DNA of 64,000 bases from Candidatus Parvarchaeum sp. (GTDB lineage: Archaea > Nanobdellota > Nanobdellia > Parvarchaeales > Parvarchaeaceae): positions 83,791 through 147,790 of the forward strand of contig JBMFWF010000001.1 in assembly GCA_049965555.1 (NCBI GenBank). The letters run 5' to 3'. Below, piece by piece: positions 8,557-52,835 of the stretch (its first letter is position 1; each line of letters opens with the position of its first letter). The position numbers and the translations under genes were made by a program. A model generated the notes under the pieces. That model ran no database searches and was not told where the DNA came from. It saw nothing but the letters and a program-made list of their open reading frames with translations.

Positions 8557-9534
8557 TTACTTATTGTAGTAGGAATCCCATTTTGGAGCATAAAAATCAA
8601 TTTTTGGGAAACTTACCTTAAAACCGTAACAACTGTAAACCATTATATTTTTAACATACTTCAGAAGAGACCAATTCTGCTTTTTTATTTTATTAAGGAC
8701 TATGTCTGCAGCAGAAAGAGACTCGAAAAAATGGTAAAGTTCCTCTTTCTTGAGTACCTGTGGAGCCTTTTCCGCCAACCAGATCTCGAAGTTCTTTGCT
8801 TCCATATCTGATGCAAAGTATATCTCTGTATTTTCAATTTTACCAGAAAATACTGCTGTTATTTTTTCAAATATTGAATCATCGGAATTCCTAAATGTAT
8901 CTAAACTTTTAGAATTTGTTATATATATTGTGTTAAGATCGGTTATTATACTTGCGATATTCCCCTTCGCTCCTTTTACAATACTGTCGATTAAACCCTC
9001 CTGTATTTTAAGCTTGTTGTAAATAACAAGCTTTAAGGCAAAAGCCTTCAATACTCTATTATTGAGTTTGTAAAATCTTGTAATTTCATAAGCTGAAAGA
9101 TACTTTTTATATTTGCTGCGAAATATATCGCCTGTTTCTGATTCGAAGATTATTATAGAATCGCTCGCTATTGAATTTAGCTTCTGCAGTATAGAAGGAT
9201 CGACTGACAGCAGTTTTTCAATGTCCTCGATGTAGATAACCTTCTTATTCTGCTCGAAAAGCGATTTAGAAACTGCAACTTTTTTTATGCTTTCCAGAAT
9301 TAGAGAAGATACACTCTGTGTCTCATCAACCAATTCATATAGATTTATAACCTCAAATGTGGCGTTTATTTCATTCGCAATTGCCTCTGCCAAGAAATTT
9401 TTCCCCGTTCCGGCTGGGCCATTAAATACAAACCTTGACTTTCCGTTTTTTATAGATGTTAATACCTTTCCAGAGATGCTGTTTGAGTAGTTTTCTACAA
9501 ACATTTTTATCTCTGGCTTGAACAAGGAAAGCAT
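8557..9534 (-). CDS. rfcL: replication factor C large subunit-like AAA+ protein (divergent, degenerate Walker motifs)
   Basis: Immediately downstream of rfcS (3-nt gap); FVFNGPAGTGKNFLAEAIANEINATFEVINL aligns to RFC-large LLLYGPPGVGKTSLAHALANE..VIELNASD but with GKN instead of GKT and EDIE instead of DEAD/DEVD; only 325 aa. Confidence 0.5.
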   Translation of the reverse strand: MLSLFKPEIKMFVENYSNSISGKVLTSIKNGKSRFVFNGPAGTGKNFLAEAIANEINATFEVINLYELVDETQSVSSLILESIKKVAVSKSLFEQNKKVIYIEDIEKLLSVDPSILQKLNSIASDSIIIFESETGDIFRSKYKKYLSAYEITRFYKLNNRVLKAFALKLVIYNKLKIQEGLIDSIVKGAKGNIASIITDLNTIYITNSKSLDTFRNSDDSIFEKITAVFSGKIENTEIYFASDMEAKNFEIWLAEKAPQVLKKEELYHFFESLSAADIVLNKIKKQNWSLLKYVKNIMVYSCYGFKVSFPKIDFYAPKWDSYYNK

Positions 9535-9536
9535 AT

Positions 9537-10478
9537 TTATTTAAGACTGGCCAAAAACGCAAGAAAGGCCTGAAATTGTATAAAAGGTGTTGCTCCTTCT
9601 ACTATCCTATAATCTGTCTCTGCAAGTTTCTCGAAAACGTAATTTTTTACTTTATCATTTACTATATCAGTAGTTGAGATTATGTTAAATATAGAGATTA
9701 AAAGCTCTTTCATATTTATACCACTGTCTATTATTTCCGAGAATATCTCCTTTGATTTCTTGAAATCCCCAGACAATGCAACTTTTAAACCTTCCATCGT
9801 CTTAGACACATCCATTAAACCACTACTTTGTAGAACTGCTTTAGAGTCTATCTTTTTAGAAACATTTGAAAGTGACTGCATTAGATTAACAAGGGTTCTT
9901 AAATCACCTCTAGAAACATAATCCAACGCATCCATTGCTTCCTTGTCCACTTCCAATTTCTCGCTATCGGCAATCCTTTCTATAAACTTGTGCACGTCTT
10001 CTTTTGAAAGCGGCTGAAACCTTAGAATTGCACACCTTGACTGTAAAGGCTCTATTATGTTGCTTTGGTAATTAACGCTGAATATGAATCTACAAGTCGC
10101 ACTATATTCTTCCATCATCCTACGCAGAGCCTGCTGGGCTTCCTGCGTTAAAGAATCTGCCTCATCAAAAAGAATTATCTTAAACGGTGCATCTATAGGC
10201 TTCGTCCTTGCAAATTCCTTAACTTTTCCTTGTATAACGCTTAGCTTCCTGTCGTCAGATGCATTTAACTCAATGAAATTCTGATCCCATATCTGACCAA
10301 ACACTGCTTTTGCCAATACAACTGCAGAAGTTGTTTTGCCTACTCCTGGTGGGCCAGATAAAATCATATGTTGTATCTCTTTCTTTTCAGCCATTGCCTT
10401 TAATTTTTCTACTATTTCTTTCTGCCCTATTATCTCATCAAAAGACTGCGGCCTATACTTTTCTATCCAAAGGGCCAT
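9537..10478 (-). CDS. rfcS: replication factor C small subunit
   Basis: 313 aa; EKYRPQSFDEIIGQ, Walker A SGPPGVGKTT, Walker B ILFDEADSLT, SRC motif QSRCAILRF; no intein. Confidence 0.9.
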   Translation of the reverse strand: MALWIEKYRPQSFDEIIGQKEIVEKLKAMAEKKEIQHMILSGPPGVGKTTSAVVLAKAVFGQIWDQNFIELNASDDRKLSVIQGKVKEFARTKPIDAPFKIILFDEADSLTQEAQQALRRMMEEYSATCRFIFSVNYQSNIIEPLQSRCAILRFQPLSKEDVHKFIERIADSEKLEVDKEAMDALDYVSRGDLRTLVNLMQSLSNVSKKIDSKAVLQSSGLMDVSKTMEGLKVALSGDFKKSKEIFSEIIDSGINMKELLISIFNIISTTDIVNDKVKNYVFEKLAETDYRIVEGATPFIQFQAFLAFLASLK

Positions 10479-10480
10479 AG

Positions 10481-11191
10481 TTAGATGTCTGCAAACAGCT
10501 CTGCAGATGGATATATTGTTATACCTGTGGCCTTTATATCTAAAGGAATGTATTTGGTTAAATGATCAGTAGATCTCATTTTTATTATTCTAAGTGCTCT
10601 TATAAATGAGCTTTGTCTTTCAACCATATAAAGGGCTATGACTCCATCAGATGCAAATTCCTCCACTCCAAACGCAGAAAGCTTGTTTTCACCATAAGGC
10701 ATCTCTCCTATGAAAATTGCAGTGCAATTCCTTGCCTTTATTATGCTTGAAATCTCTATTATGGCCTTCCTTATTGACATTATATCCGAGAAGAACATCT
10801 GTAAGTAGGTTATAGAATCGATTATCAAGCGCTGAGCACCCATTGCATCAAGCTCCGAAGAAATAACCTCTTTCATGGAATCGTAATCAACCAAAGGTAT
10901 AGTGACTATCTTTATTATGCCATTATCAATGTATTCCTTTAATTTTGGATCAAAAAGAGTAAACTGTGAAATTAAATCTTCCTGACTTTCTTCAAGCGTG
11001 AAATAAAGCCCTTTCTCACCTTTCTTGGCACCATCGGCTAAAAACTGCATTGAAAATGTGGTCTTACCCGCACCCGGCGTTCCTGTAAGGAAGATTACGC
11101 TATTTTTTGGAAATCCTCCTTTCAACGCTTCATCTAATCCAGGTATCCCTGTGGATTCTCTCTCGATGTCATTTTCGTTTTTCTTTTCCAT
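10481..11191 (-). CDS. KaiC-like single-domain RecA-superfamily ATPase
   Basis: 236 aa; STGIPGLDEALKGGFPKNSVIFLTGTPGAGKTTFSMQFLADG...GLYFTLEES is the canonical KaiC/KaiC-like N-terminus; stop lies 2 nt from the rfcS start. Confidence 0.75.
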   Translation of the reverse strand: MEKKNENDIERESTGIPGLDEALKGGFPKNSVIFLTGTPGAGKTTFSMQFLADGAKKGEKGLYFTLEESQEDLISQFTLFDPKLKEYIDNGIIKIVTIPLVDYDSMKEVISSELDAMGAQRLIIDSITYLQMFFSDIMSIRKAIIEISSIIKARNCTAIFIGEMPYGENKLSAFGVEEFASDGVIALYMVERQSSFIRALRIIKMRSTDHLTKYIPLDIKATGITIYPSAELFADI

Positions 11192-12057
11192 TAACCCTCT
11201 AAAATCATATCTCCCATTAACTGATATTTCACCCTTATAAGAGAATTCTGGCTAAGTATCTTAGCCCACTTTTCAATTAAGTCCTTACTAACATTTAAAG
11301 ATTGCGCTGCCTGTGATGTCGTAATTGAATGCTTTTCTTTGATTAACATAAGAAGTTTATTAAGAGGATTATTCGAAATTTCATTGTAATCCTCCGCATT
11401 TTTACTAGCGTTTTTACCAAAGTTAGTAGTTTCGAATATTTTCTTCTGCAGCTCAGACTGGGAGCTTAATTCGCCTGCAGGAGAAACCGCTTCCAGTGGC
11501 TGGATGACATTCTCATTTTCCTTGCTAACAATATTCTTAGATGGCATAGCAGACTGTATCTTGTTCAGCTTAGCCTCTTTCTCCTCTATGGAAACTTTTG
11601 TATCGGTTTTAGTTCCAGGTTGTGCAACCGTTATCTTTTCTTCAGATAACTCTCCTGGCTTATAATTTGGACCGGAAGGCAATTCATGCGCGATTTTGTT
11701 GATTTTCTGCTCACGCGAAACTGCCGTATTTTTAGCTTCCTTTAAAACTGGTTGTGCAACTACTTCTTTTTCAGTGCTTTCTTGTTGCATCTTAAGCTTC
11801 TTGTCTATTCCAAACAAAGATATCTTCTTCCCAGGAGACAAATCTTCTGTTGGATTCACTTTATGAGTTAATGTGCTTGACTTTACCTTTTCCTTTGTTT
11901 CTGCAAGATCTATTTTTGGTACATCCGGTAATTCGACCCCCAATGTTGATGCAGCTCTAAATAAAGAGCTATTTATCAATGAAACATCCGAATAAATCTT
12001 ATAAGAAGCATCCAAGACATTCTGCGCTATCTGCTTTAAGTTATCCTTGCTCTCCAT
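11191..12057 (-). CDS. low-complexity (Lys/Glu/Ser-rich) protein with C-terminal winged-helix-like segment
   Basis: 288 aa; mostly disordered-looking; C-terminal ~55 aa (LNKLLMLIKEKHSITTSQAAQSLNVSKDLIEKWAKILSQNSLIRVKY) has an HTH/wH pattern; 1-nt overlap with the KaiC-like gene. Confidence 0.4.
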   Translation of the reverse strand: MESKDNLKQIAQNVLDASYKIYSDVSLINSSLFRAASTLGVELPDVPKIDLAETKEKVKSSTLTHKVNPTEDLSPGKKISLFGIDKKLKMQQESTEKEVVAQPVLKEAKNTAVSREQKINKIAHELPSGPNYKPGELSEEKITVAQPGTKTDTKVSIEEKEAKLNKIQSAMPSKNIVSKENENVIQPLEAVSPAGELSSQSELQKKIFETTNFGKNASKNAEDYNEISNNPLNKLLMLIKEKHSITTSQAAQSLNVSKDLIEKWAKILSQNSLIRVKYQLMGDMILEG

Positions 12058-12112
12058 ACATATTACTTTAAATTAAAGGCTTAAATATATTTATCAATTC
12101 ATGAATAAAGAT

Positions 12113-13648
12113 TTAAACCTTTATTGTGTTTAATTTGCTCTCTAAATTAGATATATATGATAAACTGCATACTGGCGCAGTATTATTTAAAGTCTCGCAG
12201 ATCTGTGCTGTAAGTATGTTTGCTGCTCCTAAAACAGTCTGGCCAAATGAACCGCTTGTCGGATTTTCAATCGAATTAAGCATGTCCTGATGCGTACTGT
12301 ATGCTGGATTCAAACCGTTTCTAGAAAGATATGTTCCCGCATTTATATTTGCACCATCAAATACGTACTGATTATTAATGTCAAAGAATGGAACTCCTCC
12401 TACTAAAAAGTTGTATATACCAAAACCATGATATGAATTAAATGCTTGACTTGCAAGCACCACATTATTGAAAACAAACGGTGAAACGGCAGCTATGCCT
12501 GTGACATTAACCAAAAATGATGATCCAATCTCATCCAAAGGTATGAAATTTATGTAACTAGAGTTGTAATACGCTCCGACAAAGAAAGGTGTCGGATTAT
12601 TGTCTCCGTAAGGGGCTGCACCATTTATAGAGGGGTTAGAAACCGCGTTATAAAATAAATTTGCATTATAATCAAATGTGAATGTTGGAACATTTCCGTC
12701 ATTTGTAGCAGATCTATCATAAAATAAATTAGAAAAGTTGCCAAATCTCGATAATGCTACTATTATGGCCCACCGCATGCCAGCACAGAATGGACAACCT
12801 TGCGCTCCCATATAAACGAAAGTAGGCTTGCCATTATAAGTCAGTAATGGTAATTTTAATTCTGAACTTCCGTTAACCTTAACAGTTGAATTGCCGCCGA
12901 CCTTTATAGGGACTATATCATAATTATTACTGCCTATAAATAAAACGCAATAGGAAGGATTGGGCCCGTTTGAACTATTTCCTGCAGGCACGCATTCTAT
13001 ACTTCCACTTAATTGCGATTTTCCTACTTCTTCTAATTGAGTACTCAGATTTGAAAGTGCCTTTACATAATTAGGTTCCGACTTACCAATAGGCCCTTTG
13101 AAAAACTGAAGCGAAGTGGCTGAATTGTTTATCGCAGAAAAATTAGGAGATACTAACGAATTTGGGATTGGAGAACTGCCAAGATTCGAATTGGAAACTC
13201 CTGATAAATTTGCTGATGTGAACACAACTTTACCCCCTAGTGCAGATATTGTTGTTTTAGTAGGAACATGAATAATGAATAGAACTAAAATTATAACTAC
13301 TATTACAACGACTAATAAGCCTATTATCAAAGGTAGAATTAATCTATTTCTGTTATTTTGGCTTTTAGAATCAGAAACGGAATTGCTCTTTAATCTTTCA
13401 TTTTCTTCTTTTAAGCGCTGGATCTCTTTAAGTCTTTCATTCTCTTTTCTTAGCTTTTCTAGCTCATCATCATTTGAATTAGGAGTAACTTCTTCCTTCT
13501 TCTCATTGTCCTTATTGGAAGTATCCTCCTGGATAGCGGTATTTCCGCTATTTTCATTAGCATCTGAAGGCTTTTCTGGCTGCAAGTCTTTATTTGTGTT
13601 TTCATTGACTTTATTATCAGCATTGTGCTCTTTGTCTTCTTCTGGCAT
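12113..13648 (-). CDS. membrane-anchored extracellular Ser/Asn-rich glycoprotein with thioredoxin-like CPFC motif (possibly DUF929-like)
   Basis: 511 aa; acidic coiled-coil N-terminus (EKLRKENERLKEIQRLKEENERLK), one TM helix (LILPLIIGLLVVVIVVIILVLFIIHV), large Ser/Asn-rich ectodomain with many N-x-S/T sequons and AQGCPFCAGMRW. Confidence 0.45.
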   Translation of the reverse strand: MPEEDKEHNADNKVNENTNKDLQPEKPSDANENSGNTAIQEDTSNKDNEKKEEVTPNSNDDELEKLRKENERLKEIQRLKEENERLKSNSVSDSKSQNNRNRLILPLIIGLLVVVIVVIILVLFIIHVPTKTTISALGGKVVFTSANLSGVSNSNLGSSPIPNSLVSPNFSAINNSATSLQFFKGPIGKSEPNYVKALSNLSTQLEEVGKSQLSGSIECVPAGNSSNGPNPSYCVLFIGSNNYDIVPIKVGGNSTVKVNGSSELKLPLLTYNGKPTFVYMGAQGCPFCAGMRWAIIVALSRFGNFSNLFYDRSATNDGNVPTFTFDYNANLFYNAVSNPSINGAAPYGDNNPTPFFVGAYYNSSYINFIPLDEIGSSFLVNVTGIAAVSPFVFNNVVLASQAFNSYHGFGIYNFLVGGVPFFDINNQYVFDGANINAGTYLSRNGLNPAYSTHQDMLNSIENPTSGSFGQTVLGAANILTAQICETLNNTAPVCSLSYISNLESKLNTIKV

Positions 13649-13677
13649 TTTTATGTTAATACCTGTCTGCTTAAATA

Positions 13678-13982
13678 AATTGCGGTATTGAATAGCCCGT
13701 TTTTTGTCATCCCTCTGCTTTCGTTCGAAAGCTTCTCAGTTGGATGCAACAACATTCGACTAAGCGCCGGAATACCGGTTTGCACCCTGAAGGTCTGCCG
13801 TTTCATCCTCTTTTCAGCAATCAGCTTTCGCATCATCTATTTGCACTGAAAACAGGTATCGTTTCTGCTCAGTTGCCTGCCTTTTACAGCAATGCATTAC
13901 TGCACTTCAGTTTTGAAGGTGAACGGACTTCCTCCCCCAACTCATTAAAAGCCAAGGGTCTGTTGTATACAATACCGCTATT
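13678..13982 (-). ncRNA. rnpB: RNase P RNA (rnpB)
   Basis: ORF-poor, GC-enriched block. On the minus strand there is a P4 5' strand GGAGGAAGUCCGUUC (plus 13924-13935). A P4 3' strand ACAAAAAACGGGCUAUU (CR-V-like) forms 8 bp with it. A CR-II-like GAUGAAACGGCA is present. A perfect 9-bp terminal P1 helix GCGGUAUUG/CAAUACCGC closes the ends (plus 13970-13978 with 13682-13690). Length ~300 nt. Confidence 0.65.
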
Positions 13983-14013
13983 ATATATAGCAATCTGCAT
14001 TTAATAAATTATC

Positions 14014-14304
14014 ATGGAAGTCAAAACTCTTGATGATAAAGACTTGAAGAAAGATGAAAGGCTTTACATAAAAGGCATTAGATTAATCGATTCAGTAAAA
14101 GTGGACTATAAAACGCAGAAGCACGTTTCTTTTTTAGTTCAAGGAGATAATGAACTACACAATGTGATGTATTTTGATGAAAAACCGCTGGATAAAAAAT
14201 GGCAGTGCGATTGCAAATGGTATACCCTTCAGGATAAACTGTGCTCGCATATAATTGCTGTAAATTTGGCAATAAAAAACGGAAAACTGAAAATGGATCA
14301 GTAA
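14014..14304 (+). CDS. SWIM zinc-finger domain protein
   Basis: 96 aa; WQCDCKWYTLQDKLCSHIIAV = CxCxnCxH SWIM signature. Confidence 0.55.
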   Translation: MEVKTLDDKDLKKDERLYIKGIRLIDSVKVDYKTQKHVSFLVQGDNELHNVMYFDEKPLDKKWQCDCKWYTLQDKLCSHIIAVNLAIKNGKLKMDQ

Positions 14305-15035
14305 TACAGGGACATATAAGAGGGAATATTCAAGCCAGTACCTAATTTATCCAATTTTACATTTTCTTCAGATAATTCATTGTCATGCCAGTAATCAACC
14401 GCAATCATGAATGAAATCAATTTCTCATTTTTTGTCTTATCAAGGTTCTTTAATTCGCCATTTTCAAAAAGATATATCCTAGAGCCTATTACTTTATTCT
14501 TGTTTATAGTTTGCCTGTAAACTAACGTTATACCATTCACTTCCTTTTCACTGTAAAACCTTGCCTTTACTGTTTTGTTCAAATTCTCTTTCCCTGCTTT
14601 TACATCCGGGTATTCAAAGTACCTTTCGGATTTTATAATTGAATAATTGCTTAGGCTTTTGCTAGATGAACCGTCGTAAACTGAAAGATTAAGCAATGCC
14701 AAATTTGGTATGGAGTCTTTTTCAGAGAAATTTTCAGTGTAAAGTTTAGATGAAACTACATATGAATTATTTGTCTCTTTCAGTTTTTCCATGTTTACAA
14801 GGAATAAATCGAGGTTTTTATCTAGATACATGAGATTTCTGCTCCCTTTCTTTGCTATTATGTGCTTGCTGTCTCCTTTGTTTTTATACCAGTTAAAAGT
14901 ATCCGATGACTGAATAACTGTTAAATCCTCATTTTCGGAGATAAGATTCAATATTTCCTTATCTGAAATGGTTATGTAATCCTGCTTTAGAAGGTCATCT
15001 AAAATACCTCTTTCATTTTTCGGTATCATAATCAA
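14298..15035 (-). CDS. hypothetical protein (245 aa)
   Basis: Long clean ORF; no recognisable motif. Confidence 0.35.
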   Translation of the reverse strand: MIMIPKNERGILDDLLKQDYITISDKEILNLISENEDLTVIQSSDTFNWYKNKGDSKHIIAKKGSRNLMYLDKNLDLFLVNMEKLKETNNSYVVSSKLYTENFSEKDSIPNLALLNLSVYDGSSSKSLSNYSIIKSERYFEYPDVKAGKENLNKTVKARFYSEKEVNGITLVYRQTINKNKVIGSRIYLFENGELKNLDKTKNEKLISFMIAVDYWHDNELSEENVKLDKLGTGLNIPSYMSLYY

Positions 15036-17931: not shown

Positions 17932-18600
17932 TTGTTTATGGCAGGTAATAATCCGTTTATAAGCATAACATACTCAGAAAATGACACTATCGTTGATAGA
18001 GTCAATGAAAGAGTAGAATTATTGATGCTTGTAAATGAAGCAATGGAAAGAGGAGGAGTAGTAGTACTTAAAGGTGCCCCGGGCATGGGCAAAAGTACTT
18101 TACTAAATGCTGTTGAAAAAGAACTGAAGAGATCAAAAAATGTAGACATAATGAAGGAGGAATTCACCCCTGCAGTTTACAATAAAATAAGAAATCTAAA
18201 TATAAATCCTACGAAAAAAATGTTGGTTGAACTTGATGATTTCAATAACATAGAAATGCTGGATAAGTTGAGCCAGCAAAGAGTAATTGATCTCTTGTAC
18301 AACCTTAGCCAAAAAATTGCAATTTTAATAGTGGAAAACAGGGAAGAAGGAATCGAGAAAGAGCTTAAAGCACAGAGCAAACAATTTAAAAAGTACCAGC
18401 TTAACGGACTTTCAAAAGAGGACATAAAGCAGATAATAATAAACAGGCTGAATTTAGTCAGGGCTACAAAATCCGATTCGTTGGAGCCTTTTACTGAAGC
18501 AGAGTATGAAAAGATATACAAGAAAGCAAGGGGAAATCCGAGGATTGCCCTGCTGATATGTTCTGCATTATACGATCAGAAAACAAACACTATAATATAA
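17932..18600 (+). CDS. Orc1/Cdc6-like AAA+ ATPase domain protein lacking the winged-helix domain
   Basis: 222 aa; NPF...R..E...L...L......GGVVVLKGAPGMGKSTLLNAV, Walker B LVELDDF, sensor region and terminal RGNPRIALLICSAL (Cdc6 GDAR..L.LL-like); ORF ends where the Cdc6 WH domain would begin. Confidence 0.5.
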   Translation: MFMAGNNPFISITYSENDTIVDRVNERVELLMLVNEAMERGGVVVLKGAPGMGKSTLLNAVEKELKRSKNVDIMKEEFTPAVYNKIRNLNINPTKKMLVELDDFNNIEMLDKLSQQRVIDLLYNLSQKIAILIVENREEGIEKELKAQSKQFKKYQLNGLSKEDIKQIIINRLNLVRATKSDSLEPFTEAEYEKIYKKARGNPRIALLICSALYDQKTNTII

Positions 18601-18618
18601 AGAGAACTTGAGAAAGGT

Positions 18619-19494
18619 ATGAAAACAAACATCAAGACAGCCTTGGTGCTCTTAAGCATATTTACAATAGTTCTTGTAGCAAGCAGCTTTTTTGCAAGCG
18701 TAAATTTAAAGTTATTTTCTGTTATTTCATTGCAGACAGGAATAAACTACAATGTAACTTCTCCTTTCTACTATCTAATCTACCTGATAATTGCGGGTTT
18801 GCTAATACCGACCGCTGTTATACTGCTTCTTGTAAAATATAAAAAATTAAGGATAATAAACATTGTAATAATACTTTTGTTTTTGTTTGTAATGTATGCA
18901 TTTTCAGATCTTTTCCTTCTTGATATATTCGTTTTCCCCTTGAATGGAAACTTAAGTTCAAGTAGCAGCTTGCTTGCCGTCTTTTCGCTTTTAGTCTATG
19001 TATTGCCAGTGGTACTTACAGTATACTATTTCAAGTATGCCGGAAAGTACGCAAAGGATGTTTTGAACGTGATTTTGTTCGTGTCCATCTCTGCCATCAT
19101 ATCTCTTTATTTAAACATAATAACTGCATTGATACTAATCGCCGTAATAAGCATTTACGATTATATTTCTGTATTCATAACAAAGCACATGCTTACGCTT
19201 GCGAAGGCCTTCTCCGGCAATTCCTTTGGGGGCATATCCCTTATGGCAAGGAAAGCAAAAAAGCAGGAAATATTCCTTGGAGGCGGAGACCTGGCTTTCC
19301 CAGCCATTCTTGCAAATGAATTTTTCCTTCATTATAATCTTTTTTCTGGGATATTTGCAGTAATAGGCGCGGTAGCAGGGCTTTCAATAATACTTTTCTT
19401 TGGCAAGAAAGGAAAAGCTTATCCTGCGATGGCAGCCATAGGGCCAATGCAGTTCGCTTTCCTCGGTCTGTATTTCCTTATAAGATTTATCTGA
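18619..19494 (+). CDS. presenilin/signal-peptide-peptidase-like intramembrane aspartyl protease (A22 family homologue)
   Basis: 291 aa, ~8-9 predicted TM helices; YD motif (SIYDYISVF) in one TM and GxGD motif (FLGGGDLAFP) in the next, followed by a PAL-like AYPAM segment. Confidence 0.55.
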   Translation: MKTNIKTALVLLSIFTIVLVASSFFASVNLKLFSVISLQTGINYNVTSPFYYLIYLIIAGLLIPTAVILLLVKYKKLRIINIVIILLFLFVMYAFSDLFLLDIFVFPLNGNLSSSSSLLAVFSLLVYVLPVVLTVYYFKYAGKYAKDVLNVILFVSISAIISLYLNIITALILIAVISIYDYISVFITKHMLTLAKAFSGNSFGGISLMARKAKKQEIFLGGGDLAFPAILANEFFLHYNLFSGIFAVIGAVAGLSIILFFGKKGKAYPAMAAIGPMQFAFLGLYFLIRFI

Positions 19495-19539
19495 TATAAC
19501 ACCGTTATATATTTAAATTGGCATTGATTTAAAGAAAAA

Positions 19540-19845
19540 ATGGAAGTCAAGGTGAAGGAAGAAGACGTCATAAAAGGCTTGAAACAGTGCTTTGACCCTG
19601 AAATACCTGCAAACATATATGATTTAGGATTGATATACAAGATAGAGATAGTTGGAACAGAAGTAAAAATAACAATGACGTTGACTTCGCCCTTCTGTCC
19701 TGTCACAGATTATTTAGTCGAGGATATAAAAGGAAAGGTAATGGATTTTTCAGGTGCTACAAAGGTAGACTTGGATATAACTTTTGATCCTCCCTGGACT
19801 AAGGATAAAATGACGGATGAGGCTAGAGCGGAATTAGGCATATGA
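19540..19845 (+). CDS. Fe-S cluster assembly MIP18/DUF59-family protein
   Basis: 101 aa; CFDPEIPANIYDLGLIY...TSPFCPV matches DUF59 (SufT/MIP18) signature. Confidence 0.75.
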   Translation: MEVKVKEEDVIKGLKQCFDPEIPANIYDLGLIYKIEIVGTEVKITMTLTSPFCPVTDYLVEDIKGKVMDFSGATKVDLDITFDPPWTKDKMTDEARAELGI

Positions 19846-19878
19846 GACTGCCTTTTTTATTTAAACAATATTTCTAAT

Positions 19879-20982
19879 TTAATCTAGGAAATTTTTATCC
19901 TTTAATTTTTCAGGCAGATAAGTCTCTGTCATAAATGATAGACCTTTTGCAGTAAATGCATCCAACTCAACTTTAGCGCCTAGCTTCTCCATCTTATCAA
20001 GTTCTTCCATCCATTTTTTGTTGTTTTTGAACCAATCATAATTTTTGATCTGCTTTATCCTGGCCATGTCAACATCTTTAAATTTGATAAGATGCCTTCT
20101 CAATCCATACTTGTCTATGTCTTCCATTGTCAATCCCATGAACTTTGCTTCAGGCAAGGAAAGCTTGTCTGAGACATGCGCTAAGGCAATTGAACCGAAT
20201 TTAATGGCAGAATAAATGTAAACTCCCCATATATCTCCATCTGTTAAAACATAAACCGGTAAATTGTGCTCCCTGCTAAGCCTTTGAAGCAGCCTTCTTA
20301 TCCCTCTTGTTGCCTGCCCCTGGCTTGCTATTATGATACAATGCAGCTTTTTCCAAGCTTTATCTTCATTAAGCCTGTCCCATATAGTCGCTTTCTCCAT
20401 GTAAATTACAAATTTAGCATCAACCTTCTTGAATATGAGGTCTTCTACATTGCTTGGGACGGCCCATCCGCCGCTTCCCATTTTGGACCAGTCTATTACA
20501 TCTCCTCTGTCCTCTATTATCACTTCTCCTGCGACTGCCCCATTTTTGTTTGCATTTATGTTCAACTGCTCTCTCGTTAAATCCGTTATCAGTTCCAAGT
20601 CTTCTATTGCCTTGTTTGTCTCTGTCTGGTCATCAACTACATCTATCTTAGTTCCAGGTATAGTTCTTCTTACTTGGTAAAAGGCTGACCTTAAGCTTGT
20701 GTGCTTGTCGCTTTTTATGAGTTCTCTGCTTACAGCCGCCATTGCCATAGTCTGTATGAATTTCCTGACATGCCCGACATTCAAAAAGTACCTTCTTGAT
20801 AAACCGCTGCCAAGTGTTATCATCCTGTTCTCTTCATCGTATTTTACATTGGAAAGGCCTCTTACTGGCAAAGTCAAGTAAGGATTCTCTCCCTTCTCTA
20901 TCTGTTGATAAACGTCTTTTCCGAGCTTCTCAAGTATGCTTAACCGCTTTTTCCGTGATTCCTCAATTTCCTTATTGTCCAT
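19879..20982 (-). CDS. top6A: DNA topoisomerase VI subunit A (Spo11 homologue)
   Basis: 367 aa; 5Y-CAP and Toprim regions; adjacent downstream of top6B. Confidence 0.9.
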   Translation of the reverse strand: MDNKEIEESRKKRLSILEKLGKDVYQQIEKGENPYLTLPVRGLSNVKYDEENRMITLGSGLSRRYFLNVGHVRKFIQTMAMAAVSRELIKSDKHTSLRSAFYQVRRTIPGTKIDVVDDQTETNKAIEDLELITDLTREQLNINANKNGAVAGEVIIEDRGDVIDWSKMGSGGWAVPSNVEDLIFKKVDAKFVIYMEKATIWDRLNEDKAWKKLHCIIIASQGQATRGIRRLLQRLSREHNLPVYVLTDGDIWGVYIYSAIKFGSIALAHVSDKLSLPEAKFMGLTMEDIDKYGLRRHLIKFKDVDMARIKQIKNYDWFKNNKKWMEELDKMEKLGAKVELDAFTAKGLSFMTETYLPEKLKDKNFLD

Positions 20983-20986
20983 AGCT

Positions 20987-22852
20987 TTATTCCTCCTCTC
21001 CTGAAGACGTATCAGATTCTATCTTGCTTGATATGACGTCTCCCTTGCTAAGGCTTTCCTCCACGTTTGCCTTGACCTCTTCCTTCTTCTTTTCAAGAAG
21101 GCCTTCTATCTTTGCCTTTATTTTTTTCTCCTCTATGTCTGTCAACTTTGAAAGTGAGTATGCGAGCTCTACACCATACTTGTCGAACAGACTTATCCTC
21201 TCCTGGAACAAACTACTTTTGTGCTTTCTATTTAGAAATACCGAAAGATTCCTGACAAGCTCCTGCAGTGCCAGTTTTATTTCTTTTATTATAATCGGAT
21301 AGCTGGCGACCGAATTCTTGCTTTCATTTGTGTATGGAACCCAGACAGACGCTATGTGAATTATGAAGACCAGAGGACCGATCGGCACCTTGCTTTCTAC
21401 CTTCAAGCCATAACGAGCATAGTCTACTCCCAAAAAGCTTTGAGTCAATGCGCATGAAGAAGAATCAAACAACAAAGGTATCTTGTTGGCGAACCTCATC
21501 AGAATTGCTTTATCATTTTGTATTTTCCCGCCATATGCTGCAGCAACCTCTATCTGGAAAGGCATTCCCCTATAAACCTCCGGTTTTCTTGTGACTGATT
21601 TGACAAACTCCGGTGAATATTCTTTTTTCAGGCTTTTTTCGAGTTCTTCTCCGCCTATTGGAGACAAGCAGTCTGTCTGCGGCCTCATCAAGTCTAGAGA
21701 CTGAAGGGCTTTCAGTATTGAGTTTGCCTGGGTCCTATCAATATCCTGCGGTTTTGCTTTAGGATCTATCCCTGCGCTTTTTAATGTCTGTTCTGCAACT
21801 GCCCTGCTTACCCTGGAAAGTTCGTTCTCCAAAACCGATGCAACGGTTCTTTCTGTTGAATTCTTAAGGATCCTCATGAATATGCCTATTTCCAGTCCTT
21901 CTGGATGCGGCTTTATCGACAAAGGCTCTTTTGGAAGAGTATCTATTACCCTCTTATAGGTTATCTTTTCGCCATTTGGGTTTGTGTATATCAATGTCGC
22001 ATGTGGATTGACTAAAGCAGTCCTTCTAACATATTCATCCAACCCCTTATTTCCACTTATATAAAGGCCTTCTATCTCTAATTCTATGCTTGTGCCTGAC
22101 TCATAAGGATAATCTTCATCGCTCTCTTCCAAAACCTCTGGTTCATTTTTGAGAATGTTAATCTGAACTTTCATCATCTTTGCCTTCTTTGAGCTTTTTA
22201 TCTTTGATATTATCTTTGCCGGCTTGCCGGTAGTAAGCTGAGAATAAAGAACAGCGGAGTGTATGCCTATACCCTGCTGGCCTCTGCTTTGCCTCATGGA
22301 CTGGAACTTGCTTCCATAAAGCATCCTGCCGAATATATCAGGTATCTTTGAAGAAAGGATTCCTGGCCCGTTGTCCATTATCTTTATGAGGAAGATAGGG
22401 GCATTCTTCTTTAGTCTTAGTTGCTTTCCATTCATGAGCACCAAAAGCTTACCATTGTTTTCTGATATGTCGAAAGTTATGTCATCAAATGAAATGCTTA
22501 GCTTGCCGGCCCTTATCTGCTTTGATTCGCTTTTCCCCTTGTAAAGAACTGTAAATTCATTTTTCCTAACTATTAATTGCCCTACGTTCTGCTTTTCATC
22601 GAGCATCTGGTAATTGTCGCTCAATGCCTTAACGTCTATCGTTATCTCTGGCAGGGTCACCTTTTCCTTGTTCTTTTCCTGCATGTGACCAAGTTCTTCG
22701 CAGGCGTCTAATGAGTTGTCAACTGCTTCCTTTACACAAGTAAGCAATGCTTTTTGCTTATTGTCAAAACCAAGAAGATGCCTGTTTTTCTCGAAGAATT
22801 CTGTAACGCTAATTGCCCTTTGTCCCTTTGCAAGTTCTTCAGCGATTTCCAT
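20987..22852 (-). CDS. top6B: DNA topoisomerase VI subunit B (GHKL ATPase)
   Basis: 621 aa; Bergerat-fold motifs (EAVDNSLDA, GxxGxG region DNGPGI), transducer domain. Confidence 0.9.
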   Translation of the reverse strand: MEIAEELAKGQRAISVTEFFEKNRHLLGFDNKQKALLTCVKEAVDNSLDACEELGHMQEKNKEKVTLPEITIDVKALSDNYQMLDEKQNVGQLIVRKNEFTVLYKGKSESKQIRAGKLSISFDDITFDISENNGKLLVLMNGKQLRLKKNAPIFLIKIMDNGPGILSSKIPDIFGRMLYGSKFQSMRQSRGQQGIGIHSAVLYSQLTTGKPAKIISKIKSSKKAKMMKVQINILKNEPEVLEESDEDYPYESGTSIELEIEGLYISGNKGLDEYVRRTALVNPHATLIYTNPNGEKITYKRVIDTLPKEPLSIKPHPEGLEIGIFMRILKNSTERTVASVLENELSRVSRAVAEQTLKSAGIDPKAKPQDIDRTQANSILKALQSLDLMRPQTDCLSPIGGEELEKSLKKEYSPEFVKSVTRKPEVYRGMPFQIEVAAAYGGKIQNDKAILMRFANKIPLLFDSSSCALTQSFLGVDYARYGLKVESKVPIGPLVFIIHIASVWVPYTNESKNSVASYPIIIKEIKLALQELVRNLSVFLNRKHKSSLFQERISLFDKYGVELAYSLSKLTDIEEKKIKAKIEGLLEKKKEEVKANVEESLSKGDVISSKIESDTSSGEEE

Positions 22853-23354
22853 TAAGATACACCTCTACTTTCTTTTTGTTTATCATCGAAAACACATTAT
22901 CATGTTTTGCGCCATTTAAAATCATTTCTATTGCAGACTGTGCAATAGATATATTCTGTATCTGTCCGATAATACTTATAGTTTTCCCATAAACATTTAT
23001 ATAACAAGAGGTTTCCTTCATTAGCCTTTGTTTTATAATTCCCCTTGTGCCTATTACCCTTCCTTTTAGCTGCATCGCCCTCTTATCGGAATTGCTGTAA
23101 TCCCTTAGGCTTATCACTACAAGATCATAGTCGTCATCCAATAACAAAGCTGCAATTGCAGCATCAAATCCCCTATTAAAAGCGTTTACTACGTTCTTTG
23201 CAGACAAAACTTCCAAAGCACTCTTTCCGCTTACATAAGCAGTATTGCCATCTACTTCAAAAGTAACTCCGTGCTGCTTAATCTTTTCAAGCAGTTTTTT
23301 CTGCCTTACTATCTCTTTCGCCTTCCTCCCATTCATCAATATCTCGTCTTCCAT
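22839..23354 (-). CDS. KH-domain RNA-binding protein (aDim2/Pno1-like)
   Basis: 171 aa; two KH-like segments with GxxG loops (VIGTRGIIKQRL); sits in the operon between elp3 and top6B. Confidence 0.45.
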   Translation of the reverse strand: MEDEILMNGRKAKEIVRQKKLLEKIKQHGVTFEVDGNTAYVSGKSALEVLSAKNVVNAFNRGFDAAIAALLLDDDYDLVVISLRDYSNSDKRAMQLKGRVIGTRGIIKQRLMKETSCYINVYGKTISIIGQIQNISIAQSAIEMILNGAKHDNVFSMINKKKVEVYLNGNR

Positions 23355-44234: not shown

Positions 44235-44329
44235 CGTCGGGGATGGGGGTTGAACCCATTAAGGCTTGCGCCAACATGCTTTCCGTTTCTGAATAGCAGG
44301 CATGCACCTTACCGTTCGGTCACCCCGAC
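44235..44329 (-). tRNA. tRNA-Ser (anticodon GCU), class II with long variable arm and a ~13-nt intron in the anticodon loop
   Basis: Reverse complement: acceptor gtcgggg/ccccgac, discriminator G, 3-bp D-stem, anticodon stem catgc/gcatg enclosing 20 nt (ctGCTa + 13-nt insert), 15-nt variable arm, T-arm atggg-ttcaacc-cccat. Confidence 0.7.
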
Positions 44330-44423
44330 TTATTACAGATTAGAGTAACTAATCTATTTTAAGTTATTGCTATTGATTATGAATTTATTTTTTACGCTTT
44401 GACGCTTGAAGGCAAAAGCAAAT

Positions 44424-44686
44424 GACAGGCCATGGCTTCGAAATAGCTATCCATATAGAGGGTAACAACATTTTCTCCTTACAGTTTACCTACAAGCACG
44501 CTTCAGCTTAATTACGGTTGCTCCCTTCCGGGCCTGGCCGGGTTCTTAAACCAAAGCATCCTATAGGGCTGTAAATCTACGATAGCTTTGCTACCATGTA
44601 TAGAGTCACTATCCCTCGGCCACGCTTCGCCGCGCCTAAAGTCCATTTGCGCTGCAGGGAGGGACTAACTCCCCAGCTAGCCTGTC
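44424..44686 (-). ncRNA. ffs: signal recognition particle RNA (7S/SRP RNA)
   Basis: GC-enriched ORF-poor block; minus strand contains the invariant helix-8 motif CCAGGCCCGGAAGGGAGCAACCG (plus 44521-44543 region) and the ends pair as a 9-bp terminal helix GACAGGCUA/UGGCCUGUC; lies next to tRNA-Ser as in many archaea. Confidence 0.75.
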
Positions 44687-44987
44687 AAATATTAGCTGAT
44701 GTTTATAGAATAAATAGGTATTACTACTACAAACGAAAAACGGCAGGAGAATTGTCAATCGACAGTATACGCAAAAGATTTTTTTAACAGTATTAAAATA
44801 GAACGTAACCTTGCAGGTAGTACTTATGTATATACCTTAAAAATGTATAATTGTTGGTCACAGTGAAATGCATGCATAAAAGTTATATGCCGCAGACCCA
44901 GTAAATCCCCCCATAAAGGTAGGGTCCAAAAAAAACGGAAATAACGTATATTCATTGTGACCCTTGTAATTAAAACAAAATGGCCTT

Positions 44988-52714: not shown

Positions 52715-52835
52715 TCCCTGCGGCCGGACTCGAACCCGCAACCTACCGGTTTCCGCAGCTGAAACTCTTCATTGCACTGAAAAACAGCACTTAGTAATTC
52801 TACAGCCGGTCGCTCTACCATTGGGCTACGCAGGG
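52715..52835 (-). tRNA. tRNA-Tyr (anticodon GUA) with ~49-nt intron
   Basis: Reverse complement folds with acceptor ccctgcg/cgcaggg. It has the archaeal/eukaryal Tyr identity pair C1:G72 and A73. The anticodon stem accgg/ccggt encloses ctGTAg plus a 49-nt insert. The T-arm is gcggg-ttcgagt-ccggc. Confidence 0.7.

Follow-up and report, generated by a model that had tools for sequence, protein, structure and literature searches.

A cluster of minus-strand genes in a 64,000-nt stretch of the Candidatus Parvarchaeum sp. genome (contig JBMFWF010000001.1, positions 83,791-147,790; hereafter the window) places two genes, encoding a 288-aa protein with a winged helix-turn-helix (wHTH)-like end, which we designate p288, and a 236-aa KaiC-like ATPase, directly before rfcS and rfcL, the genes of the clamp loader RFC. 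We tentatively read the p288/KaiC-like pair as a switch of pilus origin that genome streamlining placed on one transcript with the clamp loader, a reading that we stop just short of calling probable. The Parvarchaeales are tiny acid-mine archaea of the ARMAN type within the DPANN. The 288-aa and 325-aa products of the cluster match proteins from a metagenome-assembled genome of Candidatus Parvarchaeum sp. with 100% identity. The GC content of the window is ~37%, and ~90% of it is coding, with very short spacers between genes. No paper on a pairing of a KaiC-like gene with RFC was found in the literature searched, and the arrangement of a wHTH/KaiC-like pair before rfcS-rfcL is not in that literature; its components all come from known families, and KaiC-like genes in varied neighborhoods and RecA paralogs in replication operons are both already known arrangements.

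The first-pass annotation, made from the letters of the window, had described five minus-strand genes in close succession, encoding a single-pass membrane protein with a thioredoxin-like CPFC motif, a K/E/S-rich 288-aa protein ending in a wHTH-like segment, a 236-aa KaiC-like ATPase, and the two clamp-loader subunits. All of these identities hold in the analyses given below, and the six-frame open reading frame (ORF) list confirmed the genes and their spacing, which from the first gene (the DUF929 gene) to rfcL is 55, -1, 2, and 2 nt (Table 1). The junction letters are TAATG for p288 and the KaiC-like gene (the 1-nt overlap), TAA-CT-ATG for the KaiC-like gene and rfcS, and TAA-AT-ATG for rfcS and rfcL. 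Because of the overlap and the 2-nt gaps, translation of the last four genes is probably coupled. Tight spacing is not unusual here, because 22 of the 52 same-strand neighbor pairs of the window (42%) are no more than 5 nt apart.

Table 1. Positions of the features discussed, in the window unless a related locus (L) is named.
Feature	Position	Strand	Remarks
DUF929 gene, 511 aa	12113-13648	(-)	six-frame ORF list
p288 gene, 288 aa	11191-12057	(-)	six-frame ORF list
KaiC-like ATPase gene, 236 aa	10481-11191	(-)	six-frame ORF list
rfcS, 313 aa	9537-10478	(-)	six-frame ORF list
rfcL-like gene, 325 aa	8557-9534	(-)	six-frame ORF list
p288 N-terminal helix	aa 3-39, nt 11941-12051	(-)	conserved end
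p288 C-terminal wHTH-like domain	aa ~229-288, nt 11194-11373	(-)	conserved end
TATA-like box ATTTAAGC	12079-12086	(-)	22-29 nt upstream of p288 ATG; proposed promoter of four-gene unit
TATA-like box of DUF929 gene	13669-13676	(-)	near-identical to p288 box, same distance (~-28) from ATG
Archaeal RNase P RNA gene	13682-13978	(-)	Rfam RF00373, 120 bits; directly upstream of cluster
Small SWIM zinc-finger protein gene	14014-14304	(+)	Pfam SWIM, E 5.6e-7; CxC...CxH
SRP RNA gene	44423-44687	(-)	
Unusually long tRNA match, 121 nt	52715-52835	(-)	
Unusually long tRNA match, 95 nt	44235-44329	(-)	
wHTH ORF upstream of T2SSE, L073	2925-3599		profile search, 42 bits
wHTH ORF upstream of T2SSE, L089	1430-2398		profile search, 34 bits
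wHTH ORF upstream of T2SSE, L023	12457-12711		profile search, 30 bits

Related loci were recovered by a genome scan, by exact-protein look-ups, and through one metagenome match (L092), and they make up 11 lineages: the window, L001 (ARMAN-4), L092, L093 (ARMAN-5), L002, L081, L082/83, L084/85, L095, L096, and L097. The order p288-family gene, KaiC-like gene, rfcS, and short rfcL is kept in all 11 lineages, whose KaiC-like proteins are at least 50% identical (94-50%), and the junction gaps within this four-gene block range from -17 to +10 nt. The adjacency of the KaiC-like gene and rfcS, which the first-pass annotation had noted in a single genome, recurs in every Parvarchaeales locus recovered and is a Parvarchaeales-wide, lineage-limited trait. 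When metagenome contigs were scanned in the reverse direction, that is, with RfcS, one locus was returned (L092, 90% identity). A blastx comparison revealed that the window is collinear with L084 over positions 17938-23354, and an earlier view that the L084 flanks were unrelated was withdrawn. This collinearity implies that the whole region is macro-syntenic, and the conservation of the four genes therefore means less than it first seems to. The collinear interval of the window encodes a weak DUF815/AAA_16-like ATPase, a signal peptide peptidase, an FeS-assembly protein, the A and B subunits of Topo VI, and a KH protein.

The closest KaiC-like gene outside the RFC-linked clade (47% identity; L086, 6001-6693, and also L087) comes from the metagenome of L084 and stands alone between two tRNA genes, with PAP2 and Cas4/PDDEXK nuclease genes downstream; neither a p288-like gene nor an RFC gene was found near it. 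RfcS was found neither within ~6 kb of the 35-40% identical homologs in L088, L089, L091, and L094, two of which (L091 and L094) adjoin KaiC paralogs and/or a V4R gene, nor within ~7 kb at any of the 78 distant genome loci (0/78). A Pfam census of 140 immediate neighbors of distant KaiC-like genes counted 18 other KaiC genes, 4 TrmB wHTH genes, and no RFC gene.

A TATA-like box precedes the p288 gene in the window. A bacterial promoter/terminator scan, which gave chance-level counts and is inapplicable to archaea, was replaced by a comparison of orthologous upstream regions, and this comparison revealed that 6 of 10 loci share the motif ATTTAARY at -28 to -31 relative to the p288-family ATG, although their spacers have otherwise diverged; most of the remaining loci have other A/T boxes at a similar position. 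Judged by known archaeal promoters, the position of ATTTAARY suggests a TATA box for a leaderless mRNA. No conserved A/T box was present upstream of the KaiC-like gene, rfcS, or rfcL in the nine loci compared, so that the four-gene block agrees with the first-pass expectation of genes without separate promoters between them. An SD-like stretch is located ahead of the KaiC-like start, read as GGAGG in this comparison and as GAGGG in the window. On these grounds, p288, the KaiC-like gene, rfcS, and rfcL probably form one co-transcribed unit with a leaderless or near-leaderless mRNA. The opposite view, that promoters inside the coding sequence drive rfcS-rfcL alone and that co-expression is illusory, draws on the occurrence of internal promoters in archaea and on an AATATAT stretch ~35 nt upstream of rfcS in the window. 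The other 8 loci do not share this stretch but have G/C-containing codons there, and gaps of 1-3 nt persist in all lineages; we consider the absence of co-transcription highly unlikely.

The unit probably consists of 1 + 4 genes rather than five. The DUF929 gene appears to be a separate neighbor because (i) it is absent from 4 of the 11 lineages (L002, L084, L095, and L096), in which the four-gene block persists; (ii) its spacer to the p288-family gene varies from 55 to 349 nt (55 in the window, 159 in ARMAN-4, and 349 in L092); and (iii) it has its own TATA-like box, placed at ~-28 like that of p288. The five-gene operon of the first-pass annotation is therefore not sustained. The corresponding signaling scheme, in which the DUF929/CPFC ectoprotein would sense the envelope or redox state and relay it through p288 and the KaiC-like protein to replication, could draw on the presence of DUF929 in 7 of the 11 lineages and on the short window spacer, in which no strong terminator was seen. 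Against it stand the losses and the long spacers just given, that of ARMAN-4 containing T7 and T5 runs, as well as the promoter-like box that separates DUF929 from p288. What lies between p288 and the RNase P RNA gene varies, moreover: DUF929 comes and goes, and ARMAN-4 adds a 285-aa ORF. Such a relay is largely refuted by the comparative data and can hardly be right.

The 511-aa product of the DUF929 gene matches the Pfam family with 61 bits (cutoff 24.6) and has one transmembrane segment and the CPFC motif at aa 285-288; all 11 of its N-x-S/T sequons lie in the ectodomain. With a Pfam match above the threshold and a CxxC motif, it belongs to the DUF929 family, a member of the thioredoxin-like clan according to published work (PMC3091736). 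Proteins of this family have been reported in the experimental secretome of the acidophilic archaeon Picrophilus (PMC8345856).

The KaiC-like protein is a single domain that matches the KaiC family PF06745 with 199.9 bits (cutoff 26.6) over aa 13-230 of 236. Its motifs are those of an ATPase of this family, namely the Walker A motif GTPGAGKTT, YFTLEES (T-x-E-E), the Walker B motif LIIDS, and IIKMRSTDH (KMR..H); among 30 homologs, G40, K43, D125, K204, and R206 are invariant, and T44, E68, M205, and H210 are at least 90% conserved. The protein is 83-94% identical to ARMAN-4-type sequences. Its best full-length matches in the PDB are KaiC proteins, and the closest solved single-domain chains are PH0186 (130 bits) and PH0284 (126 bits), followed by the RadA paralog SSO2452 (89 bits), whose score is about equal to that of a single KaiC CI domain (87 bits). 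Comparison with models of specific subfamilies revealed that (i) it is not ArlH, the ArlH/FlaH models scoring far below their cutoffs (NF052589, 40.5 against 215; PRK06067, 53.8 against 194); (ii) it is not RadB (TIGR02237, 20.3 against 172; PRK09361, 25.8 against 278); (iii) it is not RadA (PRK04301, 18.3 against 259); and (iv) it is not a clock KaiC, having one 236-aa domain and a score of 94.9 against 546 for the NCBIfam model circ_KaiC. Neither KaiA nor KaiB genes occur among the annotated flanking genes, and recombination genes such as those of RadA and Hjc were not seen beside the KaiC-like gene.

The p288 protein is conserved at both ends, which are an N-terminal helix and a C-terminal wHTH-like domain, and these are joined by a K/E/S-rich linker of variable length that is predicted to be disordered; its orthologs of 169-344 aa share the two conserved ends and the variable middle. 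The AlphaFold2 (AF2) model has an overall predicted local distance difference test (pLDDT) score of 55, with ~80 for the C-terminal helices and <50 for the linker. So poor a model did not justify a fold search, and its use was limited to the secondary structure and to the C-terminal helices predicted with confidence. The C-terminal HTH is of the MarR/TrmB type, with weak Pfam matches only (HTH_29, DeoR, MarR, and TrmB). A search of 1.84 billion representatives with a wHTH profile, which for this library was a less diverse version, returned 506 proteins at E<=0.001, and those that are named belong to DPANN lineages (Parvarchaeota, Micrarchaeota, Altiarchaeota, and unclassified DPANN). These profile matches indicate that the p288 C-terminal wHTH defines a broad family without a Pfam match above the threshold. 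Two fusions occur in this family, one of the wHTH with T2SSE (P0188) and one of a GvpD/KaiC-like P-loop domain with the wHTH (P0286), and the member in L073 is a membrane-anchored form.

Outside the Parvarchaeales, both members of the pair have relatives in type IV pilus operons. The p288 wHTH profile matches the ORF that immediately precedes T2SSE in L073, L089, and L023, loci that were originally collected solely for their KaiC-like gene, and L073 and L089 share the gene order wHTH-T2SSE-T2SSF-T2SSF-KaiC. The TrmB-type wHTH neighbors in other loci did not match the profile at E<=0.01. According to a hidden Markov model of the Parvarchaeales clade, the best single-domain outgroup KaiC-like proteins are those of L003, L005, L004, L088, and L089; three of these five are linked to type IV pilus genes, those of L005, L088, and L089 being located in T2SSE/T2SSF operons, and for the other two the contigs are too short to show the context. 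For the type IV pilus loci of archaea, KaiC-family ATPases have been predicted to act as regulators (PMC4858521), and flaHIJ-like genes and pilins have been reported in metagenome-assembled genomes of Parvarchaeales (PMC10134863). When a DPANN pilus KaiC/wHTH module is defined by a shared operon with T2SSE and T2SSF, L073 and L089 contain one; in the window and in all Parvarchaeales loci, p288 and the KaiC-like gene are adjacent, with no T2SSE or T2SSF gene between them. The relation of the Parvarchaeales loci to the pilus module is therefore one of descent or resemblance, not of membership.

These observations suggest the following model. Transcription would start at the TATA-like box ~28 nt before the p288 ATG and yield a leaderless or near-leaderless polycistronic mRNA, and the gene of the DUF929 thioredoxin-like ectoprotein would be a separately promoted, dispensable neighbor. 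The p288 and KaiC-like proteins would be partners, the KaiC-like protein as a RecA-fold ATPase with intact catalytic motifs that probably forms a ring, and p288 as an adaptor in which a long disordered tether joins the wHTH to the N-terminal helix. The pair may be an ATP-driven regulatory switch that descended from type IV filament machinery and may still act on such machinery in trans. Streamlining of the ~90%-coding genome would have put the pair on the clamp-loader mRNA, and the outcome would be co-expression with RFC and no direct biochemical coupling to clamp loading. The first-pass annotation had offered a choice between an envelope- or redox-to-replication link and mere operon packing. 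The former finds no support, the CPFC/DUF929 gene being a variable and separately promoted neighbor, and the latter is the better-supported half, given the coding density, the macro-synteny, and the occurrence of relatives of the pair in pilus operons rather than replication loci.

Several points weigh against this model: (i) the four-gene block survives changes in its flanks, where DUF929 and the RNase P RNA gene are present or absent and the SWIM gene is inverted in L084; (ii) in L096, a PriL-like gene (a faint Pfam match) replaces Trm5/LeuRS downstream of the block; (iii) the KaiC-like protein evolves more slowly than LeuRS or RfcL, with 58% identity at L081 compared with 50% and 49%, respectively, which suggests an important housekeeping role; (iv) the wHTH matches at distant loci reach a modest 30-42 bits, and domains of this kind are promiscuous; (v) the 64-kb window contains no T2SSE or T2SSF gene that could encode a present-day pilus partner; and (vi) one group of KaiC-like proteins, aRadC, has been implicated in recombination (PMC4080772, PMC4523182). 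Because of this group, the first-pass statement that archaeal KaiC-like proteins are usually signaling or motility accessories is incomplete.

RfcS is fully canonical, with 372.6 bits for NF001679 (cutoff 303), a Rep_fac_C match at E 2.2e-14, and the EKYRP, GPPGVGKTT, DEAD, and SRC boxes visible in the sequence. For the 325-aa protein, the six best NCBIfam matches are all RfcL models, the best of them (NF003229, 89.9) scoring below its cutoff of 280. It aligned over its full length to RfcS (hhalign, 97.5% probability, 288 columns), its AF2 model has a pLDDT of 82.8, and the top 50 Foldseek matches of this model are all clamp-loader subunits, the top three being yeast Rfc1. By alignment and predicted fold, we take this protein to be a clamp-loader subunit in the RfcL position, a minimal and divergent RfcL. 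The short RfcL family (315-329 aa in all lineages) is restricted to Parvarchaeota, ends in ...APxWDxYY, and has neither the EKYRP N-terminal box nor the C-terminal extension. The Walker A motif reads GKN in Parvarchaeum, sister lineages having GKT or GKS instead; the Walker B motif is degenerate (ED, or TS in L084). No PIP (PCNA-interacting peptide) motif of the form Qxx[ILM]xx[FY][FY] was seen in this family. Public records name these proteins "AAA family ATPase" or "DNA polymerase III delta prime subunit."

In the main rival reading, the KaiC-like protein and p288 are true replication or repair factors, the former a RecA-superfamily mediator of the aRadC/RadB type and the latter its DNA-binding wHTH adaptor, that act with RFC and PCNA at stalled forks or in recombination-dependent restart and are kept in the operon for this reason. 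The invariant gene order in 11 lineages with junctions of the translational-coupling type, the strong conservation and intact catalytic motifs of the KaiC-like protein, and its resemblance to SSO2452, together with the recombination role of aRadC, are all consistent with such a role. So are the genes nearby, with Topo VI ~7 kb away in the window and the faint PriL-like gene adjacent in L096, and the minimal RfcL, which without the usual C-terminal extension leaves room for an accessory factor. A precedent is the radB gene of Pyrococcus furiosus, which reportedly lies in a cdc6-polD operon (Hayashi and colleagues, 1999). However, the RadB and RadA models score far below their cutoffs, and KaiC, PH0186, and PH0284 all resemble the protein more closely than SSO2452 does; the nearest outgroup homologs and the wHTH partner are located in pilus operons, and the sister gene in L086 is not beside RFC. 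When p288 and RfcL were inspected by eye, no conserved canonical PIP box was seen in either, and macro-synteny and compaction explain the conservation without a functional link. From the sequences at hand, we judge a role in replication or repair unlikely.

The pair may instead regulate its own operon. Following the KaiC hub model, the promoter region would be the target of the p288 wHTH, whose activity would depend on the ATP or phosphorylation state of the KaiC-like protein, so that clamp-loader expression would be tied to a cell-state signal. A wHTH beside a KaiC-like gene is a recurrent arrangement, TrmB-type neighbors occurring at 4 distant KaiC-like genes; the pair occupies the first two positions directly behind the conserved promoter-like box; and KaiC-family proteins have been proposed as regulators in archaea (PMC4858521). 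The membrane-anchored form in L073 and the T2SSE fusions, by contrast, suggest a role in protein interaction rather than that of a classical repressor. No operator-like repeat is known near the box, no search aimed at it having been made. Autoregulation appears very unlikely.

It is also conceivable, although quite unlikely in our judgment, that a ring-forming KaiC-like ATPase of pilus origin and its partner, with a wHTH on a tether, were recruited as accessory subunits or regulators of a stripped-down clamp loader, one in which RfcL no longer has the C-terminal extension for PCNA binding and its ATP site is degenerate. Such a recruitment would give this ultra-small archaeon a new way to control or aid PCNA loading or the restart of forks. 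If the pair does talk to RFC, it would provide a new and tractable accessory system for replication or repair, since the proteins are small and soluble and assays for RFC/PCNA loading exist. If the genes are only co-transcribed, as in the model that we prefer, the locus would be a clean case of DPANN streamlining that welds unrelated modules into one mRNA, namely a pilus-type regulatory pair, a clamp loader, and an RNase P RNA gene whose 3' flank would double as the next promoter. It would also serve as a warning that tight spacing in such genomes is a poor guide to function. Two by-products are useful in either case: a broad DPANN wHTH family linked to T2SSE and KaiC-like ATPases, and a minimal RfcL missed by public annotation.

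Upstream, the cluster is flanked by an archaeal RNase P RNA gene, which keeps this position immediately before the cluster in another 8 loci (L001, L002, L081, L082, L092, L095, L096, and L097) and lies only 46-56 nt from the p288-family start in L002, L095, and L096. In the window, this RNA gene ends 33 nt ahead of the DUF929 start on the same strand (spacer 13649-13681), and its T-rich 3' flank, ATTTATTTAAGC, looks like an apparent terminator plus the TATA box of the next gene. In ARMAN-4, the extra 285-aa ORF (L001, 2661-3518) is located between the RNase P RNA gene and DUF929. Beyond the RNase P RNA gene lies the small SWIM zinc-finger protein gene, which tblastn or Pfam found near the cluster in every related locus covering the upstream side (L001, L002, L081-L085, and L095-L097); it usually points away from the RNase P RNA gene, but in L084 it is inverted and on the same strand. 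The 35 nt that separate the 5' end of the RNase P RNA gene from the divergent SWIM start (13979-14013) contain TATATATA, which may be a shared bidirectional TATA element. At its other end, the SWIM gene abuts an opposite-strand 245-aa gene without an assigned function (14298-15035 (-) in the window), as it does in L001 and L002. SWIM proteins of the Shu2/SWS1 family partner Rad51 paralogs in eukaryotes, and the family is said to reach archaea (PMC5727457). A Shu-like complex of the SWIM protein and the RecA paralog was considered; nothing beyond the adjacency was found, and it is kept as a lead only. Elsewhere in the window are an SRP (signal recognition particle) RNA gene and two unusually long tRNA genes, which probably contain introns.

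The canonical archaeal RFC (RfcS4-RfcL1; P. furiosus and A. fulgidus) has adjacent rfcS and rfcL genes and the three-domain clamp-loader fold, as here; its RfcL has ~400-500 aa and a C-terminal extension, whereas the Parvarchaeum RfcL has 325 aa and lacks the extension. The P. furiosus radB gene resembles the window arrangement in being a core-only RecA-superfamily paralog among replication genes. There, PolD and Cdc6 are the partners and RadB is said to bind PolD physically, whereas in the window a KaiC-family gene is joined to the RFC genes. Cyanobacterial KaiC belongs to the same Pfam family as the 236-aa protein and shares its ATPase motifs, but it is a tandem of CI and CII (~500 aa), whereas the 236-aa protein has one domain and lacks the region of the CII autophosphorylation site. 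The aRadC/RadA paralogs of Sulfolobales (SSO2452, RadC1/RadC2) and the Pyrococcus KaiC-like proteins PH0186 and PH0284 share the size of ~235-250 aa and the RecA core-only architecture and show significant similarity; the role of aRadC proteins in recombination (PMC4080772) would fit a replication operon, but the relatives of the window KaiC-like protein point to pili instead. ArlH/FlaH and the pilus-locus KaiC-like proteins of the arCOG01171/01174/01175 type (PMC4858521) share with it the single RecA-fold domain, Walker A and B, the Glu pair, and KMR..H, and the pilus-locus proteins, like that of the window, are each paired with a small partner protein. They are located with T2SSE and T2SSF, whereas the Parvarchaeales gene is joined to the rfcS-rfcL unit instead.

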